From the IMG/VR virus record IMGVR_UViG_2541047758_000018: a stretch of 34,871 nt of DNA. One strand, 5' to 3'. The notes beneath the pieces were generated by a model. The model ran no database searches. It was given only the letters and a program-made list of their open reading frames with translations, and was not told the origin of the DNA. Positions 4,545-30,034 of the stretch are shown piece by piece; the first letter of the stretch is position 1, and each line of letters begins with the position of its first letter. Source of the stretch: a virus. Its lineage: Duplodnaviria; Heunggongvirae; Uroviricota; Caudoviricetes. A program made the translations under genes and the position numbers.

Positions 4545-4550
4545 GTGCCG

Positions 4551-4596
4551 TTAGCCAGACTCACACTTTTTTCAGTGATGTGGTTATAATCCGCGT
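4551..4596 (+). promoter_or_regulatory. Candidate constitutive promoter (P4 PLE-like position)
   Basis: Perfect TATAAT at 4585-4590, downstream of the terminator and upstream of the structured leader and the icd-like operon. The -35 is weak (cacact at 17-bp spacing). Confidence 0.3.
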
Positions 4597-4599
4597 CGC

Positions 4600-4730: not shown

Positions 4731-4746
4731 ACAAGGAGGCTGCCAC

Positions 4747-5339: not shown

Positions 5340-5599
5340 ATATCAACTTAATTTATCGTCATCCGTGTGAGCTGGAAATTGAATCATTGCTGGGGCGCGA
5401 AGAGCCATATCCAGACACATTCACTCCCGCAGATTGCGCGACTGAACGGCTTACCAGAGCGCGCACAGGTCTGGTTCATGTGATGAATGAGATTATTCCC
5501 TCGGTGGGAGGGGAACAGGCGACAGTAATCAATAGCTGGCTACAAAAAGTTACCTTTCTGATAGATATCAGTTTAATCGATGTGGAGAGTGCGAAATGA
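5336..5599 (+). CDS. Hypothetical small protein (87 aa)
   Basis: ATGA start/stop overlap with the upstream ORF. Confidence 0.65.
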   Translation: MNINLIYRHPCELEIESLLGREEPYPDTFTPADCATERLTRARTGLVHVMNEIIPSVGGEQATVINSWLQKVTFLIDISLIDVESAK

Positions 5600-5817
5600 C
5601 CAACATCCAGCTCATTGAAGCGCAATGTCGCATCGAACAGGTTCAGACTGTTTTAGGGTTCTGGCTTGAAGGGGCCAGCCCAAGCAACAGAGACAAGTTA
5701 ATGATTGGCGCGGTTATGTCACTGCTCAATGGCGTACCAGAAGCTATTCAGGAAGCAGACGAATTGTTGGGCAAATATGAGTTACAGAATCATTCAGGCG
5801 AGGCGAAACATGAATAA
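5596..5817 (+). CDS. Hypothetical small protein (73 aa)
   Basis: ATGA start/stop overlap with the upstream ORF. Confidence 0.65.
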   Translation: MTNIQLIEAQCRIEQVQTVLGFWLEGASPSNRDKLMIGAVMSLLNGVPEAIQEADELLGKYELQNHSGEAKHE

Positions 5818-6412
5818 TTTCTTAACTTTCCATGCAGAAGCAACGCCTGACGGCGTAAACATCATGCACCGCAGCAACGATGGCATGACAGAACGCGTTG
5901 AGACCGTCTCATATATTGATGCCGTAAATCGTCTGGATGCCGGGGATTATGACGATAAACCAGATGAAGGTATGTCAATACATCTCGCTATAGCCGATGG
6001 CGGCAACCAGGGATATTTCGATTACACATCACAGCATAACGTCATTATGTGGAGATGGTTGATCGCAACAGTATTCATGCTGGAAATGAGAGAGGAAAAC
6101 GGCACTGTCAGCATCATTGATGATACTGGCAATCCTTCCGAAGTGGCTGTTTATTCCAACGGCATCGTCGCCATGCCGCTGTATCCAGTAGCAGAGCGCC
6201 TCGCTATGGCAAACAACATTGAGGGCGCGATGATAGAACGTTTTGGCATCGAGTCTGGCACAGAACGCGCCATCATTTTCTACAGAGCCATGATGGATGT
6301 GGAACAAGGAACACTAACTCCATTTGGTCGTGAAACGCTTGCTGAACTTCACAACAGCTTTATAGCTGAACTGAATGAAAACGGCATGCCATCGGAACCA
6401 GTGACGCACTGA
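5810..6412 (+). CDS. Hypothetical protein (200 aa)
   Basis: I chose the internal ATG of track ORF 5705-6412 because it overlaps the upstream stop (ATGAATAA), which continues the coupled chain. Confidence 0.65.
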   Translation: MNNFLTFHAEATPDGVNIMHRSNDGMTERVETVSYIDAVNRLDAGDYDDKPDEGMSIHLAIADGGNQGYFDYTSQHNVIMWRWLIATVFMLEMREENGTVSIIDDTGNPSEVAVYSNGIVAMPLYPVAERLAMANNIEGAMIERFGIESGTERAIIFYRAMMDVEQGTLTPFGRETLAELHNSFIAELNENGMPSEPVTH

Positions 6413-6422
6413 GGATGGAGCC

Positions 6423-6764
6423 ATGATTACTAAAAATTTCCGACTGAATGCGCTGGCAAATAAGTATGCGTCGGCACTGTATAACCACATTACCTCCACC
6501 AGCGGCGGGGACTATTTCATGGTTGATGCGGACGGCGAGGCCGTCCGTGTGGAAATCGTCAATGGAGTAAAAGGCGTTCGCAGCCTGATCGATAGCTACA
6601 CACTGGCAGCCATGAAAGTGTTCTACCCGCAGTGGGAAACCGTGGGGATCGAGCTTCTTGAACGTTGCGTCACTAAGGACGGATTGACTGACGTCGGGCG
6701 TGAGATATGGCAAAGCATGGTTAATGACATGGGCGCAACTGTAGCGGGAGGTTCTCATGCGTGA
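6423..6764 (+). CDS. Hypothetical protein (113 aa)
   Basis: GGATGGAG RBS, same strand and operon. Confidence 0.65.
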   Translation: MITKNFRLNALANKYASALYNHITSTSGGDYFMVDADGEAVRVEIVNGVKGVRSLIDSYTLAAMKVFYPQWETVGIELLERCVTKDGLTDVGREIWQSMVNDMGATVAGGSHA

Positions 6765-7128
6765 AAATGCAGAAATGGCGCTTAGCTCCGCAATCGGAGA
6801 GCAGGTGGCAAAGATTGCTGGTGCTGTGTGGATTCATAACCTTCATTCTACTGGTGAAGAGAAAATGGCAATTCAGACGCCAGAGGGACGCACCATTACT
6901 ACATCTCTGAAGCCGTCAGATGTTTGTGATCTGATTTGCGCATTCATGTACCCAGCAATGAGGACTGTCCACGGCGATAAGTGGAAACTTGCGACAACCG
7001 CTGAATTTGATATGTGGCTAAACAATGATGGCATGCTGACTGATTACGGAATAACCAAGTGGCAGATGCTGGTTAGCCATATCGCAAACGCTATAGACCA
7101 CGTGGGGTACGGTGATGCGAAACATTGA
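6757..7128 (+). CDS. Hypothetical protein (123 aa)
   Basis: Overlaps the upstream ORF by 8 nt. Its own stop overlaps the primase start region. Confidence 0.65.
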   Translation: MRENAEMALSSAIGEQVAKIAGAVWIHNLHSTGEEKMAIQTPEGRTITTSLKPSDVCDLICAFMYPAMRTVHGDKWKLATTAEFDMWLNNDGMLTDYGITKWQMLVSHIANAIDHVGYGDAKH

Positions 7129-9871
7129 TCTTATCCGTCAGGTTATCAGTGCGTCTGAAAACAACTGGCCTCATGTGCTGGGCTGCCTGAACATAAATGT
7201 CCCTGACTCTCCGCGCCGTCATGCTCCCTGCCCTGCATGTGGGGGCAAAGATCGATTCCGATTCGACGACAACGGGCGCGGTAGCTTCATCTGTAATCAG
7301 TGCGGCGCTGGTGATGGGCTGGATTTAATTAAACGCGTAAATAACTGCGACACAACAGAGGCGGCGTTGCTTGCCGCTGATGTTCTGGGTATTGATTACC
7401 GGACAACGGAAACACCAGAAGCCACCAGCCAGAAACGGGAACAACTGGAAACCGAGCGCCAGCGACGCGAACAGGAGCGCCTGAAAAGGGCAGAGAAGGA
7501 CGAACAACAAAGACGGGATACGTTTTCCCGTCAGTTTGATGACATGCGCAGAAAGGCTGTAAACGGCAAATCTGATTATCTGGTTGCGAAAGGGGTAGGT
7601 GATTTTACATTCCCCGTGTTGCCCGATGGATCTCTGTTGCTGGCGCTGGTGGATAAATCCGGCGCAGTCACAGCAGCACAGACTATTACCTCACATGGTG
7701 AAAAAAGACTCCTGACAGGTTCAGCAAAGCGAGGGGCATATCACGCCATAAACGCACCAGAAACAACACAGAGCATCTTAATCGCAGAAGGGCTGGCAAC
7801 GGCATTATCTGCCCATTTAATTCGTCCAGAGGCGCTGACAGTGGCGGCGATTGATGCCGGGAACCTGTTATATGTCGCCCAGGTACTGCGGGATAAATTT
7901 CCTTCAGCACAAATCATCATTGCTGCGGATAACGACCACAGCGAAGGAAGACAAAACACGGGGAGAATAGCAGCAGAAAAAGCAGCTTTATCTGTTTCTG
8001 GATGGGTGGCATTACCCCCGACAGATCACAAAGCAGACTGGAATGATTACCACCAAAAACACGGCATTAAATGCGCCACAGAAGCGTTCAATAAGTCAAT
8101 GTACCAACCACAGGGTAATGGCGTGAAACAGGAGCCACAGACCATTGAGGGAAGCGATTTTAAGGTTATGGATACCGACCCACTGAAACCAAGAATAGAA
8201 AGCCGCGAGGATGGTATTTATTGGGTATCTCCGAGAGCTGACAGCCAGAGTGGAGAAATCATCAATAACGAAAGCTGGTTATGTTCTCCGTTAAGCGTTA
8301 TCGGTACTGGCAGAGACGATAAAGACCAGTATCTCATTCTTCGCTGGCTGTCGTTTGGTTCTGAAACGCCGACAACCGCTGCCATTCCACTGGCTGATAT
8401 TGGTGAACGTGAAGGATGGCGCACACTTAAAGCTGGTGGGGTAAATGTCACGACCAAAAGCAGCCTCAGAGCAATACTGGCAGACTGGCTACAACGCAGT
8501 GGCTCTCGTGAATTGTGGCGTGTTGCTCATGCCACTGGCTGGCAATGCGGAGCGTACATCATGCCTGATGGGGAAATCATCGGAACACCTGAAAATCCTG
8601 TGCTGTTCAGCGGGAGAAGCTCAGCCGCAGCCGGATATACCGTCTCAGGGAGCGCGAAAAGCTGGCGTGATAACGTGGCGCGTCTGGCCTTTGGTAACTA
8701 TTCAATGATGACCGGGATCGGCGCAGCACTGGCAGCGCCATTGATTGGGCTGGTGGGCGCTGACGGGTTCGGCATTCATTTCTATGAGCAGTCGAGCGCA
8801 GGTAAGACCACCACGGCAAACGTGGCGAGCAGCTTATACGGCAACCCTGATTTACTGCGGCTGACGTGGTACGGAACCGCGCTGGGGCTGGCAAATGAAG
8901 CTGCCGCCCACAATGACGGACTAATGCCGCTTGATGAAGTTGGTCAGGGCGCTGATCCTGTCAGTGTTTCACAGTCTGCCTATGCGTTATTTAACGGTGT
9001 AGGGAAACTGCAAGGCGCTAAAGATGGTGGAAACCGGGATCTAAAACGCTGGCGTACAGTGGCAATCAGCACCGGAGAAATGGATTTAGAAACATTTATC
9101 GCTACTTCCGGGCGAAAAACCAAAGCCGGGCAACTGGTGCGACTGCTGAATATTCCGTTGAGTAAAGCAGTACGCTTTCACGATTACCAGAACGGAAAAC
9201 AGCACGCAGACGCACTGAAAGACGCTTACCAGCATCACCACGGCGCGTCCGGGCGTGAGTGGATTAAATGGCTGGCAGACCACCAGCAACAGGCTATTAA
9301 AACTGTTCGTGATTGCGAAAGCAGATGGAGAAGCCTGATCCCATCCGATTATGGTGAGCAGGTTCACCGTGTAGCCGCGCGATTTGCCATTCTGGAGGCC
9401 GCATTGTTGTTAGGCGAGGTTGTAACAGGCTGGGATGCTCAGACATGCCGTGATGCGATACAGCACAGCTATAACGCATGGTTGCGCGAGTTCGGCACAG
9501 GTAACAAAGAGCATCAGCAGATTATTGAACAAACGGAGGCATTTCTTAATGCCTATGGGCTTAGCCGTTTTGCACCATTTCCATACAGCCCGGCAGATTT
9601 GCCCATCAAAGATTTAGCCGGATACCGTCAGCGTGGAGAACATGACGAAAGTCCAATGATTTTCTACACATTCCCGGCCACATTTGAAAAGGAGATCGCA
9701 TGTGGTTTCAACGCAAAACAGTTTGCTGAAGTGTTGAAAAAAGCCGGGATGCTAACCCCACCAAACAGCGGTCGTGGATACCAAAGAAAATCACCACGTA
9801 TTCAGGGACGACAAATAAACGTTTATGTACTCAATTACCAGCCAGGAGATTACAACTCATCTGAAGAATGA
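7115..9871 (+). CDS. Primase-helicase (P4 alpha-like: zinc-ribbon + Toprim + DUF927/P-loop)
   Basis: CPACGGKDRFRFDD...FICNQCG zinc ribbon. Toprim signature IAEGLATALS ... IIAADNDHSEGRQNTG. Walker A-like YEQSSAGKTTTA followed by MPLDEVGQ (Walker B-like). ATG at 7115; a GTG at 7112 is the alternative start. Confidence 0.88.
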   Translation: MRNIDLIRQVISASENNWPHVLGCLNINVPDSPRRHAPCPACGGKDRFRFDDNGRGSFICNQCGAGDGLDLIKRVNNCDTTEAALLAADVLGIDYRTTETPEATSQKREQLETERQRREQERLKRAEKDEQQRRDTFSRQFDDMRRKAVNGKSDYLVAKGVGDFTFPVLPDGSLLLALVDKSGAVTAAQTITSHGEKRLLTGSAKRGAYHAINAPETTQSILIAEGLATALSAHLIRPEALTVAAIDAGNLLYVAQVLRDKFPSAQIIIAADNDHSEGRQNTGRIAAEKAALSVSGWVALPPTDHKADWNDYHQKHGIKCATEAFNKSMYQPQGNGVKQEPQTIEGSDFKVMDTDPLKPRIESREDGIYWVSPRADSQSGEIINNESWLCSPLSVIGTGRDDKDQYLILRWLSFGSETPTTAAIPLADIGEREGWRTLKAGGVNVTTKSSLRAILADWLQRSGSRELWRVAHATGWQCGAYIMPDGEIIGTPENPVLFSGRSSAAAGYTVSGSAKSWRDNVARLAFGNYSMMTGIGAALAAPLIGLVGADGFGIHFYEQSSAGKTTTANVASSLYGNPDLLRLTWYGTALGLANEAAAHNDGLMPLDEVGQGADPVSVSQSAYALFNGVGKLQGAKDGGNRDLKRWRTVAISTGEMDLETFIATSGRKTKAGQLVRLLNIPLSKAVRFHDYQNGKQHADALKDAYQHHHGASGREWIKWLADHQQQAIKTVRDCESRWRSLIPSDYGEQVHRVAARFAILEAALLLGEVVTGWDAQTCRDAIQHSYNAWLREFGTGNKEHQQIIEQTEAFLNAYGLSRFAPFPYSPADLPIKDLAGYRQRGEHDESPMIFYTFPATFEKEIACGFNAKQFAEVLKKAGMLTPPNSGRGYQRKSPRIQGRQINVYVLNYQPGDYNSSEE

Positions 9872-9894
9872 GCTTCTTCATGTGCGTAGAAAAG

Positions 9895-10009
9895 GTGTTG
9901 GTTCAGTTGGTTCAGTTGGTTCAATTTGTAAAGAGTATTGTTTTATAAGGATTTTATTCTTTTTATTGAACCAACACTGAACCAACAACACGGTATTTTG
10001 AACCAACAC
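9895..10009. repeat. Iteron cluster, candidate replication origin
   Basis: Three perfect tandem GTTGGTTCA 9-mers (9897-9905, 9906-9914, 9915-9923). A 43-bp AT-rich spacer follows, then three inverted copies TGAACCAAC (9967-9975, 9978-9986, 9999-10007). The cluster lies immediately 3' of the primase-helicase gene. Confidence 0.6.
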
Positions 10010-10327
10010 AATGTGACTGAATTGATGCGCACAACACCTGGCTGGCATCAGAGAGTGTTTTACGAGACTTTCGTAAAATCCTGTGTACAAGGGCGTGACG
10101 TTTTTGAAAGTGAGCACTACGAAATTTTCGTAGTTCAAAAAACAGCCTCTGAGAAGTTGTTATGCCTGTTCAGCAAACCATCCGCATAGCTGATCGCGAA
10201 TCAAATTACCAATGGAGCCAGAAGCAAGGGCAGAACTGAAAAGCACCTGCCGTGAAGAGTAATGCGATACCATAAATATAGTTTTTAGAGTCCATAAAAA
10301 ACCTGTCAAAACCTGACACACAGAACG

Positions 10328-10361
10328 ATGCCACCAGCTACTGAGCGGTGGCATTTTTTTT
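10328..10361 (+). terminator. Rho-independent terminator
   Basis: ATGCCACC (10328-10335), 11-nt loop, GGTGGCAT (10347-10354), then a run of T to 10361. Confidence 0.75.
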
Positions 10362-10456
10362 GTGCTATTTGTTTCATATTTTGCAATTACGATGATGAAT
10401 ATTGCGATTTGTGAAACTATAATAACTGTTGTTTTATACAGTTCTAAGGGGGCGTT

Positions 10457-10618
10457 ATGGCTATTTCAGTAAAGCCGGTATTGATAAGTGAGAAGCAAAT
10501 GGAAGCGATAAAGAAAATTCAGGAAGAGCAGCGTAAAAAATCAGGAATTGGAGTAGCGCCAACTCTGCATGAAATTGCACGAGGGTTAATAGATAAGGCG
10601 CTGGCAGGCTGTATGTGA
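10457..10618 (+). CDS. Small ribbon-helix-helix-like protein (53 aa)
   Basis: Too short for the ORF track. AAGGGGG RBS 6 nt upstream of the ATG. The translation MAISVKPVLISEKQMEAIKKIQEEQRKKSGIGVAPTLHEIARGLIDKALAGCM has a strand-helix-helix layout like Arc/CopG. Confidence 0.5.
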   Translation: MAISVKPVLISEKQMEAIKKIQEEQRKKSGIGVAPTLHEIARGLIDKALAGCM

Positions 10619-10634
10619 AAATGGATGGCATCGC

Positions 10635-11096
10635 ATGGAACTAAAATTTATTGATAACCCTGTGCGATTACAGGCCTTTCTTAACGAGCCAGGCAATACC
10701 GAAAATATTGTTGAGCCGGGGCACACGTACTACATCAAGCCTGATGCGGTATATCTCGGCATCTACGAAGGATTAGTGCTGGCTGGCGTTCATGAAGTGC
10801 GTAACTTCTGGCATAGCGTTGTTGAATGCCATGCGGTGTACGACCCCGGATTCCGTGGTGAATATGCACTGCAAGGGCATCGATTATTCTGCAAATGGCT
10901 TCTCGAAAACTCACCATTCCTTAACAGCATCACTATGGTTCCTGACACCACGAAATACGGACGGGCAATTATCCGTTTGCTTGGCGCTACCCGTGTTGGT
11001 CACCTTGATGATGCTTATATCAGATGTGGTAAACCCGTCGGCGTAACGCTTTATCAGTTAACTCGGCAACAATATAAGGAATTCAGCGAATGTTAA
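10635..11096 (+). CDS. Hypothetical phage-module protein (153 aa)
   Basis: Sits in front of the ejection-protein-like genes, and its stop overlaps the next start (ATGTTAA). It may be the P22 gp14/DUF2824-type protein, but I cannot confirm that. Confidence 0.65.
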   Translation: MELKFIDNPVRLQAFLNEPGNTENIVEPGHTYYIKPDAVYLGIYEGLVLAGVHEVRNFWHSVVECHAVYDPGFRGEYALQGHRLFCKWLLENSPFLNSITMVPDTTKYGRAIIRLLGATRVGHLDDAYIRCGKPVGVTLYQLTRQQYKEFSEC

Positions 11097-11767
11097 TTAC
11101 CCATATAGCTCATAAACATCTCAATCGTGCCGTATACGAAAAAGGCGGTGATGGTGGTGCCTCTAAAGCTCAGGCGAAGGCCCAGCAGCAGGCAATTGAT
11201 TTGCAGCGCGAGCAGTGGAATACGGTGATGAATAATCTCAAGCCGTATGCAGAAGTCGGATTGCCTGCTTTACAACAACTGCAAGGACTGATGACTCTGG
11301 AAGGGCAGAATAAAGCCGCGAATGATTTCTTTGGTTCTGGTTTATATAAAACACAGGCAGATCAGGCCCGTTATCAGAACCTTGTCTCAGCAGAAGCTAC
11401 CGGGGGGCTTGGCTCAACAGCTACCAGTAACCAGTTATCTTCCATTGCGCCCATGCTTTATAACAATTGGCTCAGTGGGCAAATGCAAAATTATGGAAAC
11501 CTGCTAAATGTCGGGATGAATGCGGCATCAGGGCAGGCAACGGCAGGGCAAAACTACGCCAATAATACCGGACAACTCTTGCAGGGGCTTGGCGCTATTC
11601 GTGCAGGTCAGGCGCAGCAGCCATCCAGTCTTGCGCGTGGTATTGGTGGGGCAGCATCAGGCGCTTTAGCGGGTGCGCAACTTGGTTCCGTTGTTCCTGG
11701 AATAGGAACTGCGGCCGGCGCTATTGGTGGTGGGCTTATTGGTCTTGTTGGGGGGCTTGGATTCTAA
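11090..11767 (+). CDS. Gly/Gln-rich internal virion (ejection/DNA-transfer, P22 gp7-like) protein
   Basis: 225 aa. The N-terminus includes EKGGDGGASKAQAKAQQQA. The C-terminus is a glycine-zipper-like hydrophobic tail, GGAASGALAGAQLGSVVPGIGTAAGAIGGGLIGLVGGLGF. Its position and composition match the first podovirus ejection protein. Confidence 0.55.
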   Translation: MLITHIAHKHLNRAVYEKGGDGGASKAQAKAQQQAIDLQREQWNTVMNNLKPYAEVGLPALQQLQGLMTLEGQNKAANDFFGSGLYKTQADQARYQNLVSAEATGGLGSTATSNQLSSIAPMLYNNWLSGQMQNYGNLLNVGMNAASGQATAGQNYANNTGQLLQGLGAIRAGQAQQPSSLARGIGGAASGALAGAQLGSVVPGIGTAAGAIGGGLIGLVGGLGF

Positions 11768-13086
11768 TGGCGACATGGCAACTTGGCGGGCTGCCTAGCA
11801 TGGCACCGCAAAATGATAATGCTCCTCGTTCTTCCGTTCCTCAGCCTGTGCAGTATCAGCAGCAGCCAAACGTAGGTTTAATGGCGCTACAGGGGCTAAG
11901 AGGCGTTGCTGAGATTAATCAGCAGGCGCAAATTTCCCAGCAGTTAAAAGAATATCAGGCACGGTTGGGTAGTGCGGTAGCTAATAATGATCGTGTTGGC
12001 GTGCAGAAGTTAATGGCCCAGTATCCCCAGTTTATGGCTGATTCTCAAAAACAGATGGGATTCATTGATGCTGAGCAAAATCGACAGACCGCTGACGCTG
12101 CCATGAATCTGCGTCTTGCGTCACAAACTGGAGATCCACTGACCATGCAGAAGGCCATTCAGCAGGCAAATCCAGTATTACAGCGATTTGGTCTTCCTGC
12201 TGAAGAGGTTTATCAGTCTTGGCAGAATGACCCACAGGAATTCAACAGAATCACTGACCTCATCCACCTCCATGCTGATCCAAATAGTTACTTTAGTGTT
12301 CAAGAGAAGCAGCAAGGGCAGAGCATTGCACAGCAGAACGCAGATACATCCGCATATAATGCTCAGGTTAATGCGGAACAGGGTAATCGACGTCTCGATA
12401 TGGAGCAGTTCAAAGTCCTATCCGATAACCAACTACGCACGAGAGAAATGGTTCTGAAAGCACGACTTGGACGTGCTCAAAATGACATCGAGAGAGACAA
12501 GCTCAATGCTGAACTGAGCAAGGTACAGCAGGCGAAAGTGGAGAAGATGAACGATAAAATTAATACTGTTGCAGGTAACATCGACTCCTTGAACTCTGCG
12601 CTTGAAGTGGGTCATGAACTGGCGGGAATTGTAGGGAAACATCCTTCGGCCGTTACCCGCTCGCAGAACTATAACCCCCTGACGCTGGGGTTTGGATTCC
12701 TTCCTGATGTAGCAGAAGACACACGAAGCCTACGCGCCAAAGCTGATGAATACAACCTAAAGGTTATTCTGCCTAGCCTCAAAGGGACTTTTGGCTCTAA
12801 CCCAACCGAAGGGGAAAGGGCTGCCCTTATGCAATCTCAAAATGGCATTAAGTCAGCAACCAGCAATGAGGCATTTTTGCGAGAGTTGAATAAAGCGCAG
12901 GACGTAATTATTCGAATGCAGAAACGACAGATTGCCGGGCTCGGTATTCCTGTAACCAAATCTAAGGACGAAGAAACTGATACCAAAATGCTGTTGCAGG
13001 ATCCTTCACTAGTTAAGGATTATGTGACCGCACATGGCTATCTGCCGGAAAGTTACTATCAGGCAAAACTTAAGGGATGGCAATGA
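11767..13086 (+). CDS. Gln-rich internal virion (ejection, P22 gp20-like position) protein
   Basis: 439 aa with 1-nt start/stop overlap. It is Q/N-rich and looks coiled-coil. It is the middle gene of the three-gene ejection set. Confidence 0.5.
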   Translation: MATWQLGGLPSMAPQNDNAPRSSVPQPVQYQQQPNVGLMALQGLRGVAEINQQAQISQQLKEYQARLGSAVANNDRVGVQKLMAQYPQFMADSQKQMGFIDAEQNRQTADAAMNLRLASQTGDPLTMQKAIQQANPVLQRFGLPAEEVYQSWQNDPQEFNRITDLIHLHADPNSYFSVQEKQQGQSIAQQNADTSAYNAQVNAEQGNRRLDMEQFKVLSDNQLRTREMVLKARLGRAQNDIERDKLNAELSKVQQAKVEKMNDKINTVAGNIDSLNSALEVGHELAGIVGKHPSAVTRSQNYNPLTLGFGFLPDVAEDTRSLRAKADEYNLKVILPSLKGTFGSNPTEGERAALMQSQNGIKSATSNEAFLRELNKAQDVIIRMQKRQIAGLGIPVTKSKDEETDTKMLLQDPSLVKDYVTAHGYLPESYYQAKLKGWQ

Positions 13087-15414
13087 TGGCACAACTGACA
13101 GAAAAACAGAAAGCCTATTCCCGTCATCTCGATGAAAAATATGGTTTCCCATCAGGGACGATGGAAACATTAGTTGGCAATGAATCTAGTGGTAACGGAA
13201 GTGCCGAGTCACCGAAAGGAGCTAGAGGATTTGCTCAACTGATGCCCTCAGTAATGAGTGATGCTGGTTATCGTGGAACAGATCCGCGCTCACTGCCATT
13301 TGAAAAGCAAATGGATATCGCAGCAAACCATCTCAATAAAGGAATGAAGCGATTTGGTGATATAGGTATGGCATTGGCTGGGTATAATTCTGGCTATGCT
13401 CGTATTAATGCCGTCAGAAACGGTAAATCTACACTGCCAGATGAAACGGCTAATTACGTAAGTAAATTTGCAGATGCTGGAATAATCCCTGATGACAGTG
13501 AAATCTTGCAGTTTGCACAAACCAGTCAACATCGCAATCTTCAGCAGCCTGACTACTCAGAGCTTGATAAAGAAATCTCTCAGGTGGGAGATATTTCTGC
13601 ATGGGAAGCAAAACGTCAGCAATTTAAGAACATAGAAGCAGGACTACCAACAGCCAGTTCATGGGAGCAGAAAAGAGCTCAGTTTCTCGCCGATGAAAAT
13701 GCCGGGGAACCGCAGCAGCAAGTAGCCAAGTCTAACCTTAATCCTGAGATGGAATATCTTTCGCCAGGACTGAAAGCTGCGCCAGAGCAGATGGCCAGAG
13801 GGATTGCTAATATACCGTTTGATGTAATGGACGCAGGCGTGGGGGTAGTCAATGCGGCGCAATCAGCCGGAGCATGGGCAGCTCAGAAGCTTGGTGTGGG
13901 TGATGGCACATACACGCCCATATCACCTGTCTTTCGCCCAGTAGACCAACCTACAGATCCATACGCGCAGGCTGGTGAGCAGCTAGCACCTTACCTTATT
14001 ACAGGATTAGGTGCAGGAAAGGCAGCTACCGCAGCTTCTTCAGTTGCCAACGCTCCACGTGCTGAACGTGCGGCCACAAAGGTGGCTAGTATGTTGGCAG
14101 AAAACCTGCCAGGTACATTGGTGAACGCCCAAAAGAACGGGCAGATCAGCCCAGAAGACCTAGCAAAAGAGACAGGTATTGGCCTAGCAGGATCGCTAGG
14201 AGCACGCGCTTTAATAAAGAGCGGACAGACAGCCAGTGACGTAATGCGAGATGTATTGCGGAGTAATACAAATCAATCAGGCCATGTGTTAGGGGCAGCA
14301 AATACTCTGGAAACCGCCAATGATGTATCGAAAGCAGCGCGTTCTGCCGTAGGCCGAGAGCATATCGCATCGCAGGCATCAAACGTCAGAGATGATGTCG
14401 CTAAGGCGGCGAAAATCACTGGTATTAATATCAACACCCTGACGCCTGGAATGCGCTCAGGTAGTCGTGGAATTGCCCAAGCAGAAGGTGTTCTGGCATC
14501 AACTCCTGGGAATGTTCAGGATGCTCACCTTACGGCCTTCAATGAAATATCCTCAAAGTTGAATAAGCAGTTGTCTGATTTCGGTGCTGAGTCTGGAAGC
14601 GCATCAGAAAAAAGCGCAGCAATTAAAGAGCGCATCATCGCGAGCCTCAGTGATATGAAAACAGCAGAGAATATGGCATGGGCAGAACTGCGAAGCACGA
14701 TGCCACGCGAAAGGATGAAAATGAGTAATGGGATGGCTGTCGTCCAAGCAGAAAAAGCAGCCAATGTTCCACTCAGCCCGGAGATGAAACAGTTTCAGGC
14801 TGCCAACAACCAAGGTGGCGGCATAACCTTCGACGGGATGAAGGCATGGCGTGCTAAGTTTGCTGATGCTGAACAAGCAAACACCCGGGCAGGTAAGGCC
14901 AATGCCGCCCGGATTGCCGGAGAAATGCGCAGAGCTATCACTGATGACATGCGCATCATGGCTGAAAAAGGAAACTTCCTCACAGAATGGCAGAAAGCTA
15001 ACGATCTCTCTAAAAGTTACATTATCGCCAAACAAAATGCCGAATCTGTTTTTGGTCGAGATCTCGCATCAGACGCTATGGTAAGAAAAGGTGCCGATAC
15101 GCTTAAGGCATCCGCAAACACTGGAACGGGAGCTTTTCACCGTCTTATCTCCGCGCTGCCGGAAGCAGAACGCCAACCTGCAATAGCATCTATTCTTCAG
15201 CATGCTGTGGCGCAGGGAGAGAAGGGAGGAATCGGTGAAGAGTCAGGTATCCAGTATTTTGCCAAGCTCATGACCCAGCAGAATGTAAACGCCATCAGTC
15301 GTCATGCGCCAGATCTCGGTAGAATGATGAAAGAGTTCGGTGTACTCGCTAAAGCCAGTACCAGACCGCAGCGATACGTAGAGCGCACGGGAAGAACAAC
15401 TGAGGCTCTCAAAA
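13077..15414 (+). pseudogene. SLT-domain internal virion/ejection protein, 3'-truncated by IS911
   Basis: N-terminal lytic transglycosylase motif: NESSGN...GARGFAQLMP...AGYNSGYARI. The native reading frame runs straight into the IS911 inverted repeat at 15415. The last 52 codons of track ORF 13077-15569 are IS-encoded. Confidence 0.75.
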
Positions 15415-15444
15415 TGAAGTGGTCAACAAAAACTGGCCACCGAG

Positions 15445-16592
<1,148 letters not shown>

Positions 16593-23595: not shown

Positions 23596-24849
23596 TTACT
23601 TCAGACAGTGAGTTTCCCATTCCTTGACTGCAAATGTATCCATCATACCTGAAATATAGTCAACCACTGCTCGTTTTTTGCTGATTTTAAATATATAGGA
23701 ATCTGGTTGGGGTAAGGTGAATTTAAGTTCAGGAGGCAGAAATTTATAATTCTCTCCTTCATTGTAAAAGTCATATAAATCCCTGATTATTTTATTTCCC
23801 CTGAACTCATAGGTGAGGATATTACGTTTTCGCATGATGACTTTAAAGAGAAGTTTTTTGAGCCCTTCGGATAACGCATTCAGTTTCCCGAATCCCAGTT
23901 CCTGAAAACCATTCAGGTTCGTTACTACAGAAATATCTGCAACGAGGCGATTGACAATATTTGAAGTTAACTCCTTGCGGAATATGATGGCAAATTCTTC
24001 TGAGGTTTTCAGTAAGTTAGCCTGAAAAGCGGTGTTTCTCGACTGAGTAACGATTTCCCTGAACTGTTCCCTCGCTCCCCGGAATTCGTCAGAAATCTGA
24101 AACTCATATTCAATATCTTCAATCGTGACCATGTTCCTGCTAAGGGCATCTTCCAGGTCATGCGCGGCATAGGCAATCTCATCCGCGAGATCCATTATCT
24201 GCGCATCAATCGTTTTCTCTCCGGGATTCAGATCGAGCTGATTTTCAGCAAGCAGGTTAATGTAAAAATAGTAATCATCATCATAAATGAACTTGCCGGC
24301 AGTAGCTGCAGCGCGGGGGATGGGATACTTAACAACCGAAAGTAAACTACGGTGAGTCAGATTTAATCCGTTGCAGTATGAAAATTTCTTCTCCAGTTTT
24401 CTCAGGATACGTAGCGCCTGTGCATTGCCTTCATAGCCGCCGATTTCTTCAGACAGTTCATTAAGCAGTTTTTCACCGGAATGACCGAAAGGAGGATTTC
24501 CGATGTCATGCGCCAGCGCTGCCAGTTCAACCACCACCGGGTTAACCAGTTTGAGGTCTGACGCGATACTTCGGGCGATCTGAGCAACCTCAAGACTGTG
24601 CGTTAATCTGTTTCTGTTGAATTTTTCAGGATCAATTTCAAAAAGTTGCATCTTTCCCTGCAGCCTGCGAAATGATGATGAATACAGAATACGCGCATAA
24701 TCCCGTTGATAATTATCCCGGCTTCTTGTTTCACCATCGGGGGACGGGTGCTCTCTGGTATCAGCAAGCGCACTGATAAGTTTTTGTTCCTGCTCTTGCG
24801 CAAATTCTTTTAATTCATTGCAGTACATATTTCTTCCTTTCTGGAGCAT
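23596..24849 (-). CDS. dGTPase-family HD-domain dNTP triphosphohydrolase
   Basis: RDYARILYSSSFRRLQGKMQLF, RLTHSLEVAQIARS, HDIGNPPFGHSGE and YEGNAQALRIL are the Dgt-family signature blocks. The ATG at 24828 (MYCNEL, preceded by AGGAAG) is a likely alternative start. Confidence 0.88.
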   Translation of the reverse strand: MLQKGRNMYCNELKEFAQEQEQKLISALADTREHPSPDGETRSRDNYQRDYARILYSSSFRRLQGKMQLFEIDPEKFNRNRLTHSLEVAQIARSIASDLKLVNPVVVELAALAHDIGNPPFGHSGEKLLNELSEEIGGYEGNAQALRILRKLEKKFSYCNGLNLTHRSLLSVVKYPIPRAAATAGKFIYDDDYYFYINLLAENQLDLNPGEKTIDAQIMDLADEIAYAAHDLEDALSRNMVTIEDIEYEFQISDEFRGAREQFREIVTQSRNTAFQANLLKTSEEFAIIFRKELTSNIVNRLVADISVVTNLNGFQELGFGKLNALSEGLKKLLFKVIMRKRNILTYEFRGNKIIRDLYDFYNEGENYKFLPPELKFTLPQPDSYIFKISKKRAVVDYISGMMDTFAVKEWETHCLK

Positions 24850-24978
24850 GTTACCAAATCAGAATACCGGATGAACAAAACTGGTGGCTACATCCTGTAG
24901 GGATTATGTATTAGTAAGCTCTGGCCATTAGTGCCATTTCAGGTTATGTGATCCTACTCACGTAATATGGACACAGGC

Positions 24979-25845
24979 CTAAGTGAGGTTCTGGTTTTCA
25001 AATTGTTCCGGACTGAGGCCGCCACACCAACTGTGCCGCCGCCACCGATTGTAATCACATTCGATATAATTAAACACCGTTGCCCGCATTATTTCCCGGC
25101 TGATAAAGTGTTCTCCATGGATACATTCCACTTTCAGCGAATGAAAGAAGCTTTCCACGCAGGCATTATCGTAGCAGCAACCTTTTGCGCTCATACTTCC
25201 ACGCAGATTATGCCGCTTCAGTTGCGCCTGATAATCTGCTGAACAGTACTGGCCTCCACGGTCCGTGTGAACGATAACGTTCCGGGGCCTCTTACGCCGC
25301 CACAGCGCCATCTGCAGGGCATCGCAGGCCAGTTGCGCCGTCATGCGTGGCGACATTGACCAGCCAATAACGGCACGTGACCACAGGTCAATGACCACTG
25401 CCAGATACAGCCAGCCTTCATCTGTACGTAAGTACGTGATGTCTCCTGCCCACTTCTGGTTCGGGCCACTGGCGTAAAAATCCTGCTCCAACAGATTTTC
25501 TGACACAGGCAGGCCGTGTGCGCGGTAGCTGACCGGGCTGAACTTCCGGGAGGCCTTTGCCCTCAGTCCCTGACGGCGCAGGCTTGCCGCCACGGTTTTT
25601 ACGTTAAAGGGGTAACCCTGAGCACGCAGTTCATCCGTCAGGCGTGGGGCACCGTAACGCTGTTTTGACCGGGTAAAAGCCGCGAGGACAACGCTGTCGC
25701 AGTGTTGGCGGAACTGCTGACGCGTGCTTATCCTTGTCCGCCGCTGACACCACGTATACCAGCCGCTGCGGGCCACCCGGAGCACGCGGCACATTGCTTT
25801 GATGCTGAACTCAGCCTGATGTTTTTCAATAAAGACATACTTCAT
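24979..25845 (-). CDS. insF: IS3 OrfB (DDE transposase)
   Basis: [10 protein letters not shown]...[11 protein letters not shown]...[12 protein letters not shown]. The start overlaps the orfA stop. Confidence 0.9.
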
Positions 25846-26141
25846 TTCAGGCGCTTCGCGAAGTATGTCGCGGCCTTTTGGAGGATAGCCAGCTCTTCAT
25901 CCCGTTCTGCCAGCTGGCGTTTGAGACGTGCAATCTCGGTAGACATCTCCAGTTCACGTTCAGAAGACGTCTGCTGATTTTGCTGTTTACTGCGCCAGTT
26001 GTAGAGTTGTGATTCATACAGGCTGAGTTCACGGGCTGCGGCAGTAACACCGATGCGTTCAGCAAGCTTCAGGGCTTCACTGCGAAATTCAGGCGAATGC
26101 TGTTTACGGGGTTTTTTACTGGTTGATACTGTTTTTGTCAT
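25842..26141 (-). CDS. insE: IS3 OrfA
   Basis: [50 protein letters not shown]..., 99 aa. This is an internal start of track ORF 25842-26150. Confidence 0.9.
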
Positions 26142-26220
26142 GTGAGTCACCTCTGACTGAGAGTTTACTCACTTAGCCGCGTGTCCACTATTGCTGGGTA
26201 AGATCACCCTGTGAACCATG

Positions 26221-26297
26221 TTGATATTGATACTATATTGACTATATGCCATACAGGTGGTAATGATTAGTTACTACCATACAGGAAAAGGTAGAAA
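26221..26297 (+). promoter_or_regulatory. Candidate promoter/operator of the TS-like operon
   Basis: Tandem TTGATA TTGATA (26221-26232) with TATATG at 26243-26248, 16 bp from the first hexamer. Two CCATACAGG direct repeats (26249-26257 and 26277-26285) bracket a near-palindrome, GGTGGTAAT gat TAGTTACTACC. RBS AAAAGGTAG. Confidence 0.3.
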
Positions 26298-27278
26298 ATG
26301 ACTCTTTTGGTAACGGCTGAGTGTGTTGACGATCTGATAAACGATGTTCATCAAGCTATCCTAGCGGATGGACTCAGTAACGATCCTACAAAAGGATCAA
26401 CTCTAGAGATTCTTGGTGCCTATCTTGTCCTTACCGACCCCCGCCGAAGAATAAGTAGAACAGAATCCCGAGGAAAACTAATTAGTTGCTTAGGTGAATT
26501 TCTGTGGTATCTCTCAGCTCAGAACGATCTTGAGTTTATAAAACACTTCATACCACGTTACGCTGAATCCGCTGAGTCAGATGGGAAAATACATGGTGGT
26601 TACGGGCCACGGTTGTTTAATATGCGTGGTTTATATAATCAGCTAAAAAATGTCATCAACCTTTTGCAGGAGAAAAAACCTACCAGACGTGCAGTAATAC
26701 AGCTTTTCGATGCCTCAGACTTGGTGCCCTCAAAAACTGAACAGCGAGAATACGTAGATATTCCTTGTACAATATCTATGCAGTTTATTGTCAGATGTGA
26801 AGAGCTGCATCTATTTGTTTGTATGCGTTCTAACGATGCCTTTATGGGGCTGCCTCATGATGTATTTGCGTTCACGATGCTACAGGAATTAGTTGCCCGC
26901 TTGATAGGATGCGAATTGGGTCACTATCATCACTTTGTATCCAGCCTACATCTCTATAAAAATGATTTAGAAAAAGTGAAGGCTCTTCAGAAAGAGGGGT
27001 TCATGAGCACCCTACCAGTCATGGGATCGATGCCTGAAATGCATTCCTTAGATGATATCTTACCCCTGCTTGAGGCAGAAAAAGCTCTTCGAGAGAATAA
27101 GGAATTTGATATTGACACTACTTCCTTGAATGACTACTGGAAGGATTTATTGCGTATATTAAAAATCCACTTTTTGTTACGTTCACATACACCCAACCAC
27201 AAAGGACTAGCCTTCCAAGAGTTGGCTGCAATGAAAAATCAGGAATATCGGTTTATTTTTGAAGGAAGACTACAATGA
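26298..27278 (+). CDS. Thymidylate-synthase-fold pyrimidine C5-transferase (predicted cytosine-nucleotide methylase/hydroxymethylase)
   Basis: Aligns by eye to ThyA at GEFLWYL (E58), GGYGPR (Y94), TRR (R126/R127), IPCTISMQF (C146, here C157), CMRSND (R166/S167/D169) and SLHLY (H207/Y209). ThyA N177 (GLPFNIAS) is Asp188 here (GLPHDVFA). Confidence 0.8.
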   Translation: MTLLVTAECVDDLINDVHQAILADGLSNDPTKGSTLEILGAYLVLTDPRRRISRTESRGKLISCLGEFLWYLSAQNDLEFIKHFIPRYAESAESDGKIHGGYGPRLFNMRGLYNQLKNVINLLQEKKPTRRAVIQLFDASDLVPSKTEQREYVDIPCTISMQFIVRCEELHLFVCMRSNDAFMGLPHDVFAFTMLQELVARLIGCELGHYHHFVSSLHLYKNDLEKVKALQKEGFMSTLPVMGSMPEMHSLDDILPLLEAEKALRENKEFDIDTTSLNDYWKDLLRILKIHFLLRSHTPNHKGLAFQELAAMKNQEYRFIFEGRLQ

Positions 27279-28219
27279 AAAGACATAATCAAATCAGTCA
27301 GCTGGTTAGTAATTTGCAAAATTTTAGCCGCAATGAACACAACCTAAATGGTCTAAGTTCTCCTGCCTGCTTTGATGTTTTAGCCTGTCAGATTATCGAC
27401 AGTATACGTCGTATACGCTATGTGGAAACTCTTGCATTACGGACCGATTATATGACTCCGTTACGAAAAGAGCCGAATTCTGATGTTTTTGATCCTCTCC
27501 GCGCTGCCTGCCTTTATCTTCGTGACAACAATTACGATGAAGCCTGCTGGCTGGTTTTCCTTGCCACACATTTCGGCAAGAGTAACAAAACCGGCTGGAT
27601 TTTGTGTCGAGATATATACAGTGGACTCGGTACACAAACGTGGACATGGGATACGATAACTGATGACTTTGCTGCTTTTGAACAATGGTTCGCCAGCGTC
27701 TCTGATGAGTTGACAGCTAACAGTAGCCTAAGACAATATGGTAACCATCGGAAATATGAAACGAAGAAATATCACTCTCGTCGTTCAATACCTGCGGTTT
27801 TTCGCTCTTACATCGGATTCATTGGTGCTACACACAGTCATGAGGCTAGGTTTGCAGAGGCCAAGAGCTTTTCATCTTCACCAGAATCTTTATTCGAACT
27901 ATTGTATTCAGGGCTAAATGCCGTGATCTCATTTGGACGAACCGCAAAATTTGATTACCTAACTATGCTCAAGAAAACGGGACTTCTGGATGTAGAGCCG
28001 GGTCATGCTTTTCTGAATGGAGCAACCGGGCCCCTTCAAGGAAGCCGGCTACTTTTCAGCAATAGCCGGACTGCTGGTGACACAATAGACGTATTGAATG
28101 AAAAACTAGCTGACCTTGCGGCAATTATTCCTGCACCCTACTTGAGAATGCAGGTTATTGAAGATGCGTTGTGCAACTGGCAGAAATCACCTGACCGTTA
28201 TGTCTATTTCGGCGGCTGA
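27275..28219 (+). CDS. Hypothetical protein (314 aa), partner of the TS-like enzyme
   Basis: The ATG overlaps the TS-like stop (ATGA). I recognise no motif with certainty. Stretches such as EACWLVFLATHFGKSNKTGW and FGRTAKFDYLTMLKKTGLL remind me loosely of helical DNA-base-modification/glycosylase-like families. This is unverified. Confidence 0.75.
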   Translation: MKRHNQISQLVSNLQNFSRNEHNLNGLSSPACFDVLACQIIDSIRRIRYVETLALRTDYMTPLRKEPNSDVFDPLRAACLYLRDNNYDEACWLVFLATHFGKSNKTGWILCRDIYSGLGTQTWTWDTITDDFAAFEQWFASVSDELTANSSLRQYGNHRKYETKKYHSRRSIPAVFRSYIGFIGATHSHEARFAEAKSFSSSPESLFELLYSGLNAVISFGRTAKFDYLTMLKKTGLLDVEPGHAFLNGATGPLQGSRLLFSNSRTAGDTIDVLNEKLADLAAIIPAPYLRMQVIEDALCNWQKSPDRYVYFGG

Positions 28220-28221: not shown

Positions 28222-29304
28222 TCAGACGATATCTTCTTTACGGAATCTCACTTTAAACCGATTAAGGTGAGAAAAAGGTATATTACCTTCATGCTGCAAA
28301 TATCCCAGTACGATCCCTTTGGATACCCCCATTTTCCTAGCTAACCGGATGATCTCTTTCCAATGCCGGACACCATAGCGACTAAGTTGCTGCCGGTATT
28401 CTTCTGGGATAAGAACATCAACGGCAAATTTATCTGCTTCCTTTTCCTCTTCCGACGAAAGACTATCTTTACCTTCTACGCGAACTCGGACAGCTTCATG
28501 CAAGATGAGATGCCCAATCTCATGAAACAGCGTAAACCAAAAATGGTCATCGGTCAGATAACGGAAACTCATGACTAGGGTTGCGCGATCTGGTGTAAAA
28601 AAGCAGGTAGCACCACTTGCCCGACATCCCTTTGGCGTTGGCAACACAACGAGAGAAACTCCAGCAGTGGCGAGAAGGTCGCGAATGTAAGGGATAAAAA
28701 TCCTCATGTCGGGTTCATTTGTAGCTTTGCGCAGTTCTGGCAACAATGCTATCAGCACCTCTTTATCCCATACAGCACAGTTTTGGTTTGAGGTAAGTTG
28801 TGCAGCCCTAGTCAGCCACACCAAATCGGCCATAGGCTCGGTTGCCAGATTAAGAGATTTACGAAAAGCGACCAAAGGAGCATCTGACTGAATTTTATAA
28901 AAAAAATCATTGACGGAATTTATTCCGAAAAACGATAGGCAGTGCTGGAATTTACTTTCCCGAGTTGTAGTTTTGGGGATCCAACCAAACTCCATCATAT
29001 CACGTACAGGCAATGATTCGAGCCAATCATTATTCACTTTCTCGAGGTATCCAATTTGCTGGCGATAAGCGACTTCGCGCTTGATCCAGAAGTCTGTCGA
29101 TACGTTGAATAACTCCTCAAGCTTACAAGCCAGAGACTCATTGAGTCGGATTTTTCCTTCAAGAAGTTGCTGACCCCGGATAAGAGACAATCCAATCCTC
29201 TTACTCAGTTCTTCACCAGAAAGCCCATGTTCATCCATTAGATCTATAATTGTATCACCGGGTGGAGATACCCAGTCAGGCTGGAAGTCCTGCGTAACTA
29301 TCAT
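28222..29304 (-). CDS. HigA-like XRE HTH fused to an ImmA/IrrE-type zinc metallopeptidase
   Basis: The N-terminus PGDTIIDLMDEHGLSGEELSKRIGLSLIRGQQLLEGKIRLNESLACKLEELFNVSTDFWIKRE fits the HigA/VapI HTH pattern. The C-terminus carries HEXXH in TLFHEIGHLILHE, typical of ImmA/IrrE (DUF955). Confidence 0.82.
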   Translation of the reverse strand: MIVTQDFQPDWVSPPGDTIIDLMDEHGLSGEELSKRIGLSLIRGQQLLEGKIRLNESLACKLEELFNVSTDFWIKREVAYRQQIGYLEKVNNDWLESLPVRDMMEFGWIPKTTTRESKFQHCLSFFGINSVNDFFYKIQSDAPLVAFRKSLNLATEPMADLVWLTRAAQLTSNQNCAVWDKEVLIALLPELRKATNEPDMRIFIPYIRDLLATAGVSLVVLPTPKGCRASGATCFFTPDRATLVMSFRYLTDDHFWFTLFHEIGHLILHEAVRVRVEGKDSLSSEEEKEADKFAVDVLIPEEYRQQLSRYGVRHWKEIIRLARKMGVSKGIVLGYLQHEGNIPFSHLNRFKVRFRKEDIV

Positions 29305-29627
29305 TTCACGTCACCTATGAACACTAACCGTATCCGGCTAACTCGGGACCAGTTAATTGTATTATCTTGATTTTTGGGCTGAACTGTATTCCCACAGACA
29401 AATCCCATTTTTACATCACCGAGAATGGTAATTGTAATACACTCTTCCCCATCCTCAAAGCAGACCTCCGGCGAACCTACGGGCAACAGTAATATGTTGT
29501 CTGTCACGGAAAGATCGGAAAGTCGCGAGCGTAGTCTTGATGCCACTTTGTCACCAAAGATCTCATTTGCCTCATGCATACTCTCGCAAATAGTCCTTAA
29601 CTTCTTGCTTTGAAAGGTAATGAACAA
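29301..29627 (-). CDS. Small protein, weak HigB/RelE-like toxin candidate
   Basis: 4-nt overlap with the downstream HTH-peptidase gene. The N-terminus MFITFQSKKLRTICE...VASRLRSRLSDL resembles HigB 'killer' proteins, but the C-terminal catalytic-type residues are not evident. Confidence 0.4.
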   Translation of the reverse strand: MFITFQSKKLRTICESMHEANEIFGDKVASRLRSRLSDLSVTDNILLLPVGSPEVCFEDGEECITITILGDVKMGFVCGNTVQPKNQDNTINWSRVSRIRLVFIGDVK

Positions 29628-29770
29628 AATTATCCACTTTTATTTTTCTTGGTTGCTACGTTTATAGCAAACTCAACGCTCATTCACAAAATGAGATGTA
29701 GCGAATTAATGGACTCTGCACATATTAAATGTTAATGATGGACTTAAAATCACGGATTCGTAAGGGAAAC

Positions 29771-30034
29771 ATGAAAGGTAAACATCAAGACACTAAAGCC
29801 CTGTCTGACGTGCTAGCGGAAATGCAACGGCAGGATGCCAAATGGGGGGCAGACCGTAATCAAGATCCTTTTATCTGGGGAGCGATTCTCGGAGAAGAGG
29901 TGGGAGAATTTCATCAGGCTGTCCTCCATGATCGTTTTGGTGGTAAAGCAGCCGGTACCAGTAGGGAGGAAGCAGTACAAATTGCTGCTGTTGCACTGCA
30001 AATCATCGAATATTATGATCGCGTAATAGATTGA
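29771..30034 (+). CDS. MazG-like all-alpha nucleoside triphosphate pyrophosphohydrolase (87 aa)
   Basis: Internal ATG of track ORF 29729-30034 with an AAGGGA RBS. LGEEVGEFHQAV and EEAVQIAAVALQIIE resemble the two acidic metal-binding helices of small MazG-type enzymes. Confidence 0.6.
   Translation: MKGKHQDTKALSDVLAEMQRQDAKWGADRNQDPFIWGAILGEEVGEFHQAVLHDRFGGKAAGTSREEAVQIAAVALQIIEYYDRVID

Follow-up and report, generated by a model that had tools for sequence, protein, structure and literature searches.

In the thymidine-hypermodification pathways of phages M6, ViI, PaMx11, SP10 and PhiW-14, a deoxyuridylate (dUMP) hydroxymethylase of the thymidylate synthase (TS) fold works together with a 5-hydroxymethyldeoxyuridine (5-hmdU) DNA kinase and an enzyme of the aGPT-Pplase/amino-acid:DNA transferase (AADT) family. 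In gp46, one such enzyme, Cys247 clamps the flipped thymine whilst Glu243 and Thr244 hold its O4 via a metal (PMC11472151). M6 gp51 and ViI gp247 both require the corresponding Cys and Glu; after attack at C6, these enzymes release the phosphate of 5-phosphomethyl-dU in DNA and load an amino acid onto the exocyclic methylene, and every characterised AADT acts on a base already phosphorylated by the 5-hmdU DNA kinase (PMC8989533). Here we describe a bacterial cassette that resembles these pathways, in a stretch of DNA filed as IMG/VR virus record IMGVR_UViG_2541047758_000018 (34,871 nt, hereafter the window). It consists of two convergent operons: the first encodes a TS-fold enzyme with a cytosine-type specificity residue (open reading frame 1, ORF1) and an aGPT-Pplase of clade 3 (ORF2), the second a HigB-like small protein and an Xre-type helix-turn-helix (HTH) domain fused to an M78 peptidase. 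We tentatively propose that it is an inducible defence acting on cytosine in DNA.

Parts of the cassette also have described counterparts outside the phage pathways. Among TS-fold enzymes, Asp at the base-recognition site accompanies cytosine substrates and Asn uracil, and a further residue pair sets the sugar, Lys/Ala marking ribonucleotide enzymes (MilA, BcmA) and Arg/Ser deoxyribonucleotide enzymes (T4 gp42, TS); Lys133 and Ala176 confer the ribonucleotide preference of MilA, and its A176S/K133R mutant switches to deoxycytidylate (dCMP) (MilA structure paper, PMC5175136). The validated abortive-infection system PD-lambda-2 (Vassallo et al. 2022) has a HigB-like component A and, as component B, an Xre-HTH/M78 fusion; B alone is toxic, A rescues, and an unrelated third component, C, is required for defence (PMC9519451). 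The DefensePredictor study (Science 2026) validated the E. coli system DS-4, composed of a TS-like protein, an adenylate/dNMP kinase, a 5-hmdU DNA kinase-like protein, a TIR protein and Nmad2. Working defence systems can thus include a TS-fold enzyme. In that study's table of 3,000 E. coli strains, WP_000174035.1 is listed as a 'Predicted novel defense gene' (log-odds 7.6), and the study counts aGPT-Pplase among the domains predicted to act in defence that 'have not been experimentally validated'. WP_000174035.1 is the RefSeq protein at the position of ORF1 in a genome that is 100% identical to the window across the region.

The conserved unit is a four-gene, horizontally mobile cassette of two convergent, abutting operons, extended to five genes in about a third to half of the loci. 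A scan with the ORF2 alignment over one genome per species (185,579 species genomes) detected 449 relatives across many phyla, from which 78 loci were retrieved in Proteobacteria, Bacteroidota, Acidobacteriota, Planctomycetota, Verrucomicrobiota and other phyla. An ORF1 homologue was found directly upstream of the ORF2 relative, on the same strand, in 74 of the 75 loci with room for it, and a reciprocal metagenome scan from ORF1 relatives recovered an ORF2 relative downstream in 62 of the 62 loci with room. Convergent with ORF2 lies an HTH-M78 gene of ~363 amino acids (76 of 78 genome loci, and all 58 metagenome loci with room), preceded upstream by a gene of ~109 amino acids in 74 of the 78 genome loci. 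Clustering of all flanking ORFs showed that, beyond ORF1 and ORF2, only homologues of these two genes are conserved, plus a middle gene of partial frequency, a 266 amino acid reading frame between the ORF1 and ORF2 homologues (26/78 genome loci, 31/62 metagenome loci) that is absent from the E. coli window. Genes inside each operon mostly overlap by a few bases, and the gap between the stops of the two operons has a median of 2 nt across 135 loci, with 51 overlapping and 126 lying within 20 nt (28219 and 28222 in the window). Such abutting stops leave no space for a terminator, so the two transcripts should overlap, which may itself be a regulatory feature. A reading of this DNA made earlier from its letters alone (the sequence-only reading) had proposed a translationally coupled pair, ORF1 and ORF2, joined by an ATGA overlap (27275–27278). 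The coordinates, the overlap and the co-occurrence of the two genes are borne out, whilst the idea of a two-gene operon as the unit, with the toxin–antitoxin (TA)/regulator-like pair at 28222–29627 as mere context, gives way to an obligate architecture of which that pair is a part.

The distribution of the cassette is patchy at both levels examined. Beside the 449 matches among species genomes, its 2.1 kb region is present in 234 of 5,426 complete E. coli genomes, always on the chromosome, with at least 99% identity in 233 of the carriers and 95–99% in the remaining one. The window is itself E. coli chromosomal DNA.

ORF1 has the TS fold, with its catalytic Cys and phosphate-binding Arg residues (Pfam Thymidylat_synt, PF00303, E = 5.3e-25). 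Its best solved relative is MilA (5b6d/5jnh), which in mildiomycin biosynthesis hydroxymethylates cytidylate (CMP) at position 5; the match covers residues 26–304 with E = 1.6e-41, compared with 1.4e-18 for the best true thymidylate synthase, and the C-terminal extension of ORF1 aligns with MilA's own, to residue 304. Codon 157 is tgt (26766–26768), the nucleophile Cys157, and codon 188 is gat (26859–26861); in alignments this Asp188 falls opposite MilA Asp186 and opposite the Asn of thymidylate synthases (the position of E. coli Asn177). The uracil-type relatives PaMx11 gp51 and the DS-4 TS-like protein carry Asn at this position. ORF1 further possesses Glu67, Arg130/Arg131, an R-S-N-D motif, His218 and Tyr220. 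Across 71 homologues from loci that also contain an ORF2 relative, no variation is seen at Arg130, Cys157, Arg177-Ser-Asn-Asp180, Asp188 or His218; 70 of them retain Tyr220, and position 131 varies (Arg in 31, Gln in 35, Lys in 5). The fold, Cys157, the cytosine-type Asp and the extra C-terminal residues are therefore as the sequence-only reading had them; the Arg pair R130/R131, R-S-x-D and H218/Y220 it listed are likewise all present, with the qualification that Arg131 is not conserved.

At the positions of MilA Lys133 and Ala176, ORF1 carries Arg130 and Ser178, and it is therefore predicted to be a deoxycytidylate enzyme and not a MilA-type CMP enzyme; in this it resembles the dCMP-preferring MilA double mutant. 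Its residues thus predict dCMP as the substrate, with a logic nearer to T4 gp42 than to MilA. That the product is the 5-hydroxymethyl form we infer from two things, the proximity of ORF1 to MilA and the requirement of the partner enzyme for an oxygenated methylene. ORF1 shares the Cys nucleophile and the cytosine-specifying Asp with both MilA and T4 gp42, and the C-terminal extension with MilA; unlike MilA, it has no MilB-type glycosidase partner and no antibiotic gene cluster around it, and unlike T4 gp42 it is not in a phage. Its identity to phage pyrimidine hydroxymethylases is at most ~34%.

ORF2, which the sequence-only reading had left as an unknown protein, is a full-length match to Pfam PF18746 aGPT-Pplase3 (E = 4.8e-90, 302 bits against a cut-off of 25) and also matches PF18724 ADDT, amino-acid:DNA transferase (9.1e-59, 199 bits against 26.2), and RefSeq already applies the aGPT-Pplase name to the protein in some genomes. 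The family comprises 3,903 sequence clusters at an E-value of 1e-5 or better, with the sharply conserved motifs GNHRKYE, SFGRTAKFDYLTM, ATGP and QVLEDALCNWQKSP. The fold is all-helical and helix-hairpin-helix (HhH) DNA-glycosylase-like, as in the solved gp46/PUGT, and the nearest structural relative is an enzyme of double-stranded DNA; a PDB sequence search with the ORF2 profile gave no match at E-values up to 10. Profile comparison aligned MQVIEDALCNWQK of ORF2 with IQEVETILCKWKS of gp46, so that Glu296-Asp297-x-x-Cys300 corresponds to Glu243-Thr244-x-x-Cys247, and Glu296, Asp297 and Cys300 are all invariant in the ORF2 family. We speculate that the Thr-to-Asp change at residue 297 parallels the Asn-to-Asp switch in ORF1. 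By Pfam score, fold and catalytic motif, ORF2 is thus the aGPT-Pplase-like partner that had been one of the hypotheses for the pair. A MilB-like partner, another of them, was rejected on the all-helical HhH-like fold of ORF2; MilB we take to have the nucleoside 2-deoxyribosyltransferase fold. No match to ORF2 was obtained by tblastn at 1e-3 in 50,697 phage genomes, so an origin as phage cargo was dropped, and in IMG/VR the family is found in only 28 contigs, all of which contain the same cassette.

With the phage thymidine pathways, the cassette thus shares a TS-fold C5-hydroxymethylase and an aGPT-Pplase-family enzyme with the same Glu-x-x-x-Cys motif. It differs in that it is bacterial, with an ORF2 of clade 3 whereas the characterised phage transferases are of clade 2, in that its hydroxymethylase has the cytosine-type Asp where the phage enzymes have Asn, and in that it lacks the DNA kinase and any pyridoxal phosphate, radical S-adenosylmethionine or flavin (FAD) tailoring enzymes. 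Compared with gp46, ORF2 has Asp297 for Thr244 and lacks the C-terminal pocket segment, and the cassette is linked to a TA-like module. DS-4 likewise places a TS-fold enzyme beside DNA-hypermodification-type proteins in an antiphage context; however, DS-4 has an Asn-type TS, kinases, TIR and Nmad2 and no aGPT-Pplase, and the cassette has none of those components.

The larger protein of the facing operon combines the Xre/HigA-like HTH (Pfam HTH_3, 4.3e-05) with an ImmA/IrrE-type zinc peptidase (Peptidase_M78, 9.9e-11), whose HExxH motif is kept in 70 of 70 homologues. Its PADLOC match is to PD-Lambda-2_B (3.3e-30, residues 15–341), with weaker matches to RosmerTA RmrA (to ~4e-10) and CBASS CapP. 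The 108 amino acid small protein has no match in Pfam (even at an E-value of 10), NCBIfam, PHROGs or PADLOC, including the PD-Lambda-2_A model, and no credible one in the PDB, although JGI and NCBI label some homologues 'toxin HigB-1' or 'proteic killer suppression protein'. It occupies the place of PD-lambda-2 component A and is of similar size. In PD-lambda-2 and RosmerTA a HigB-like or other toxin accompanies an Xre-HTH/M78 peptidase, and the cassette resembles them in that its fusion gene is preceded and overlapped by the small, putatively HigB-like gene; unlike PD-lambda-2, the cassette has no conserved component C (P4-antitoxin-related) and has a convergent enzyme operon instead. The small gene is unannotated in RefSeq record NZ_CM137007 (L001), and gene callers missed it in other contigs as well (L109, L111 and L112).

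The middle 266 amino acid protein has the uracil-DNA glycosylase (UDG) fold, its top twelve structural matches all being proteins of the UDG superfamily. It has no match in Pfam (even at an E-value of 10), NCBIfam or PHROG and nothing credible in a PDB sequence search, and its family consists of 2,026 sequence clusters without informative names. This gene matters for the mechanism because it brings a further DNA base-flipping fold into the operon.

The promoter block of the enzyme operon is conserved in eight related enterobacterial loci, where homology begins just past the end of an IS3 insertion sequence, at ~26206. The inverted repeat that spans its -10 (GTAATGATTAGTTAC, GTAAT-N5-GTTAC) occurs once in the window, compared with 0.08 occurrences expected by chance, and is a candidate operator. 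Another perfect inverted repeat, TTGCTA-N6-TAGCAA, lies at 29653–29670, in the intergenic region that separates the small gene from the MazG-like gene beyond it. We looked for one operator shared by both promoters; the two palindromes differ (26260–26274 vs. 29653–29670) and so give no evidence of a common one. The IS3 itself (window ~24950–26206) is inserted directly upstream of the conserved promoter block, and the promoter seems intact. Among the E. coli matches listed, six align from query position 1 (26200) and so share the IS3 junction, whilst the other nine align only from position 7 (26206).

Our favoured explanation, which we consider plausible but hold at a little less than an even chance, is that the cassette is an inducible defence that makes 5-hydroxymethyl-dCMP and derivatises, or excises, 5-hydroxymethylcytosine in DNA. 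In healthy cells the HTH-M78/HigB-like pair would hold the enzymes silent or inactive, whether through repression at the palindrome over the -10 (26260–26274), through convergent transcription or through control at the protein level, and would release them upon infection or DNA damage. ORF1, presumably folate-dependent, would then divert dCMP to 5-hydroxymethyl-dCMP and 5-hydroxymethyl-dC nucleotides, and Cys300 and Glu296 of ORF2 would attack the flipped-out 5-hydroxymethylcytosine in replicating DNA, altering or trapping the base. In the third to half of cassettes that encode it, the UDG-fold protein would join ORF2 and excise its product, so that the base is derivatised or excised. The outcome would be a block of phage replication, perhaps at the expense of the cell. 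The role in defence is suggested by the PD-Lambda-2_B match, the DefensePredictor listing, the patchy distribution and the presence of Shedu, HipA, type I restriction-modification (R-M) and dGTPase neighbours.

Several results weigh against this explanation. The characterised phage transferases need a 5-hmdU DNA kinase, and a kinase sought among the conserved neighbours of the 78 genome loci was not found. The cassette also has no dNMP kinase to raise 5-hydroxymethyl-dCMP to the triphosphate, a step for which T4 relies on its own gp1. The hhalign match between ORF2 and gp46 is local and, taken alone, weak (E = 0.046), and ORF2 stops 14 residues past Cys300, so that part of the putative leaving-phosphate pocket of gp46 (Lys261, Asp262, Glu265) has no counterpart and the chemistry may differ. 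Nothing in the cassette distinguishes host from phage DNA. No PADLOC model matches ORF1 or ORF2, and a PADLOC scan of the 123 nearest flanking ORFs gave a few type I R-M and mad5 (MADS) matches, a count with no background and no usable fraction. Finally, we found in the literature no experimental study of the cassette or of any member; in that respect the sequence-only reading's description of an undescribed system holds, yet ORF1 and the aGPT-Pplase domain had both already been predicted as defence by DefensePredictor. The cytosine signature, the four-gene architecture and the UDG-fold gene were likewise not found described, although an earlier comparative-genomic mention of clade 3 is possible.

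The missing kinase would cease to matter if the cassette were a sink for the nucleotide pool, an unlikely but serious alternative in which ORF1 converts dCMP to 5-hydroxymethyl-dCMP (fed, in enterobacteria, by the MazG-like pyrophosphatase acting on dCTP) and ORF2 irreversibly degrades or derivatises the mononucleotide, so that the phage is starved of deoxycytidine, as in dCTP-deaminase and dGTPase defences. The arginines and the serine with which ORF1 would bind the 5'-phosphate of a mononucleotide are retained, and MazG-like and dGTPase genes adjoin the cassette in E. coli; however, the nearest structural relative of ORF2 acts on double-stranded DNA, the frequent additional gene has a UDG fold with twelve of twelve top matches in that superfamily, and the MazG-like gene is found in only 7 of the 78 loci. 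Moreover, dCTP is not produced via dCMP, so a dCMP sink alone would deplete little. Less likely again is an abortive infection of the PD-lambda-2 type, with the Xre-M78 protein as toxin, the HigB-like protein as its neutraliser and the enzymes in place of component C, serving not as effector but as a sensor or accessory, for example one that recognises hydroxymethyl-pyrimidine nucleotides or DNA of the phage. The toxicity of B, its rescue by A and the need for an unrelated third component in PD-lambda-2 (PMC9519451) would all fit, as do the strong B model match, the fully conserved HExxH and the same gene order, small gene then Xre-M78; but across phyla neither enzyme varies in its catalytic residues, as would be expected of turnover more than of simple binding, the small protein misses the PD-Lambda-2_A model, and the enzymes form a separate, convergent operon.

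That all characterised aGPT-Pplase-family members build protective DNA hypermodifications (PMC8989533), and that the window lies in a mobile element, integrated and equipped with an integrase and a P4-like primase, would suit a modified cytosine in the DNA of the host or of the island itself, serving as an epigenetic or anti-restriction mark rather than as a weapon against phages. We regard this as improbable, and as ranking below the abortive-infection alternative, since no ORF2 relative was detected in the phage genomes, in Vibrio and Bradyrhizobium the cassette is isolated among housekeeping genes, a TA-like module of the sort typical for inducible systems is closely linked to it, and no cognate modification-dependent partner is conserved in the 78 loci. 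MilA being the nearest solved relative of ORF1, a small-molecule pathway akin to that of MilA/MilB or of bacimethrin might release a free base or antimetabolite derived from 5-hydroxymethylcytosine, a compound that resembles the thiamine pyrimidine. This is very unlikely: ORF1 has the deoxy-type Arg/Ser and not the Lys/Ala of ribo-specific MilA and BcmA, the fold of ORF2 is not of the MilB type, so that the MilA/MilB-like pair raised in the sequence-only reading does not hold, and the 78 loci show no conserved genes for tailoring, export or resistance. The RefSeq product name and the Pfam TS match would make ORF1 an ordinary second thymidylate synthase with unrelated neighbours. We rejected an ordinary ThyA, and this alternative is effectively refuted, by the Asp in place of the uracil-specifying Asn in 71 of 71 homologues, by NCBIfam thymidylate-synthase models that score at best 81 bits against a cut-off of 327, a quarter, and by the obligate linkage to ORF2.

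A more specific form of the favoured defence explanation, which we offer as a doubtful but coherent idea, is that cells employ for immunity a cytosine branch of DNA hypermodification that needs no kinase: upon infection the cassette would load replicating DNA with 5-hydroxymethylcytosine, the clade 3 transferase would make an adduct or lesion directly, and in many lineages a UDG-family glycosylase would join in. If true, ORF2 would give the aGPT-Pplase family its first demonstrated activity on cytosine, and the cassette would be the first bacterial defence that hypermodifies DNA chemically rather than cutting it. The characterised aGPT-Pplase/AADT enzymes are all from phages, work on thymine precursors and protect phage DNA. 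The same chemistry in bacteria, with a cytosine-type hydroxymethylase, no kinase and an abortive-infection-type module, suggests a phage-style hypermodification turned into a weapon or signal. A published but unvalidated defence prediction thereby becomes testable in E. coli by defined point mutants, the enzymes could be of use in epigenetic sequencing if they write or remove 5-hydroxymethylcytosine, and an unnamed family of the UDG superfamily (~2,000 sequence clusters) is exposed.

Table 1 Features of the cassette and of its surroundings, in window coordinates.
Feature	Position	Strand	Remarks
Promoter/leader of enzyme operon	26207..26297	+	TTGACT 26238-26243; -10-like TAATGAT ~26261-26267; inverted repeat GTAATGATTAGTTAC 26260-26274 spanning -10
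ORF1, MilA-like pyrimidine C5-hydroxymethylase, TS fold	26298..27278	+	326 aa; predicted substrate dCMP
ORF2, aGPT-Pplase clade 3/amino-acid:DNA-transferase-family enzyme	27275..28219	+	314 aa; HhH glycosylase-like fold; invariant Glu296-Asp297-x-x-Cys300
Xre/HigA-like HTH fused to M78 (ImmA/IrrE-type) zinc peptidase	28222..29304	-	360 aa; HEIGH; stop 2 nt from ORF2 stop
HigB/'killer protein'-like small protein	29301..29627	-	108 aa; stop overlaps HTH-M78 start by 4 nt
MazG-like small protein	29729..30034	+	RefSeq 'MazG-like family protein'; PHROG 24212 at 4.1e-37
Tyrosine integrase	1-1260		Left part of window (1-15569), integrated element
P4-like primase (Toprim + DUF927)	7112-9871		Left part of window

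In the window, the cassette is surrounded by an IS3, a dGTPase-family gene (PADLOC dGTPase, 1.4e-109), a MazG-like gene and hsdR of a type I R-M system, the neighbours on which the sequence-only reading had based a defence-type setting. All of these are present, a defence-type setting is supported, and the AT-richness that it had noted is real (41% GC in ORF1 and 44% in ORF2 vs. 47% in the window). When the 78 loci were clustered, no dGTPase, IS3 or hsdR homologue was among the gene clusters common to many loci, and the MazG-like homologue at this position is confined to enterobacterial loci (7/78), a lineage-specific accessory and not a core gene. The MazG-like gene belongs to an all-alpha NTP-pyrophosphatase superfamily that would also include the T4 dCTPase gp56. 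If that kinship holds, it could supply dCMP to ORF1 as gp56 does to gp42. The dGTPase-family defence gene (23596–24849, minus strand) is an intact reading frame of 417 amino acids in the window and is annotated as frameshifted in strain 4FM (L001:17398-18629).

The cassette of the window lies within an integrated element that carries the integrase and the P4-like primase of Table 1. AntA and Ash-family proteins are also encoded in the left part of the window (1–15569), and at 11090–15569 it encodes homologues of gp7 and gp20, which are ejection proteins of P22, plus an SLT-domain protein, an unusual occurrence with no other virion genes nearby. Elsewhere, the cassette of V. cholerae is situated between pilus genes and a HipA module, that of Bradyrhizobium beside a Shedu nuclease gene, and both the Vibrio and the Bradyrhizobium cassettes stand alone amid housekeeping genes. 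Decayed copies occur as well. An IS21 element splits the transferase gene in Enterobacter hormaechei (L010:5572-8474), and in Chryseolinea serpens (L077) the transferase and a truncated UDG-fold gene are left, with no hydroxymethylase within 8 kb.

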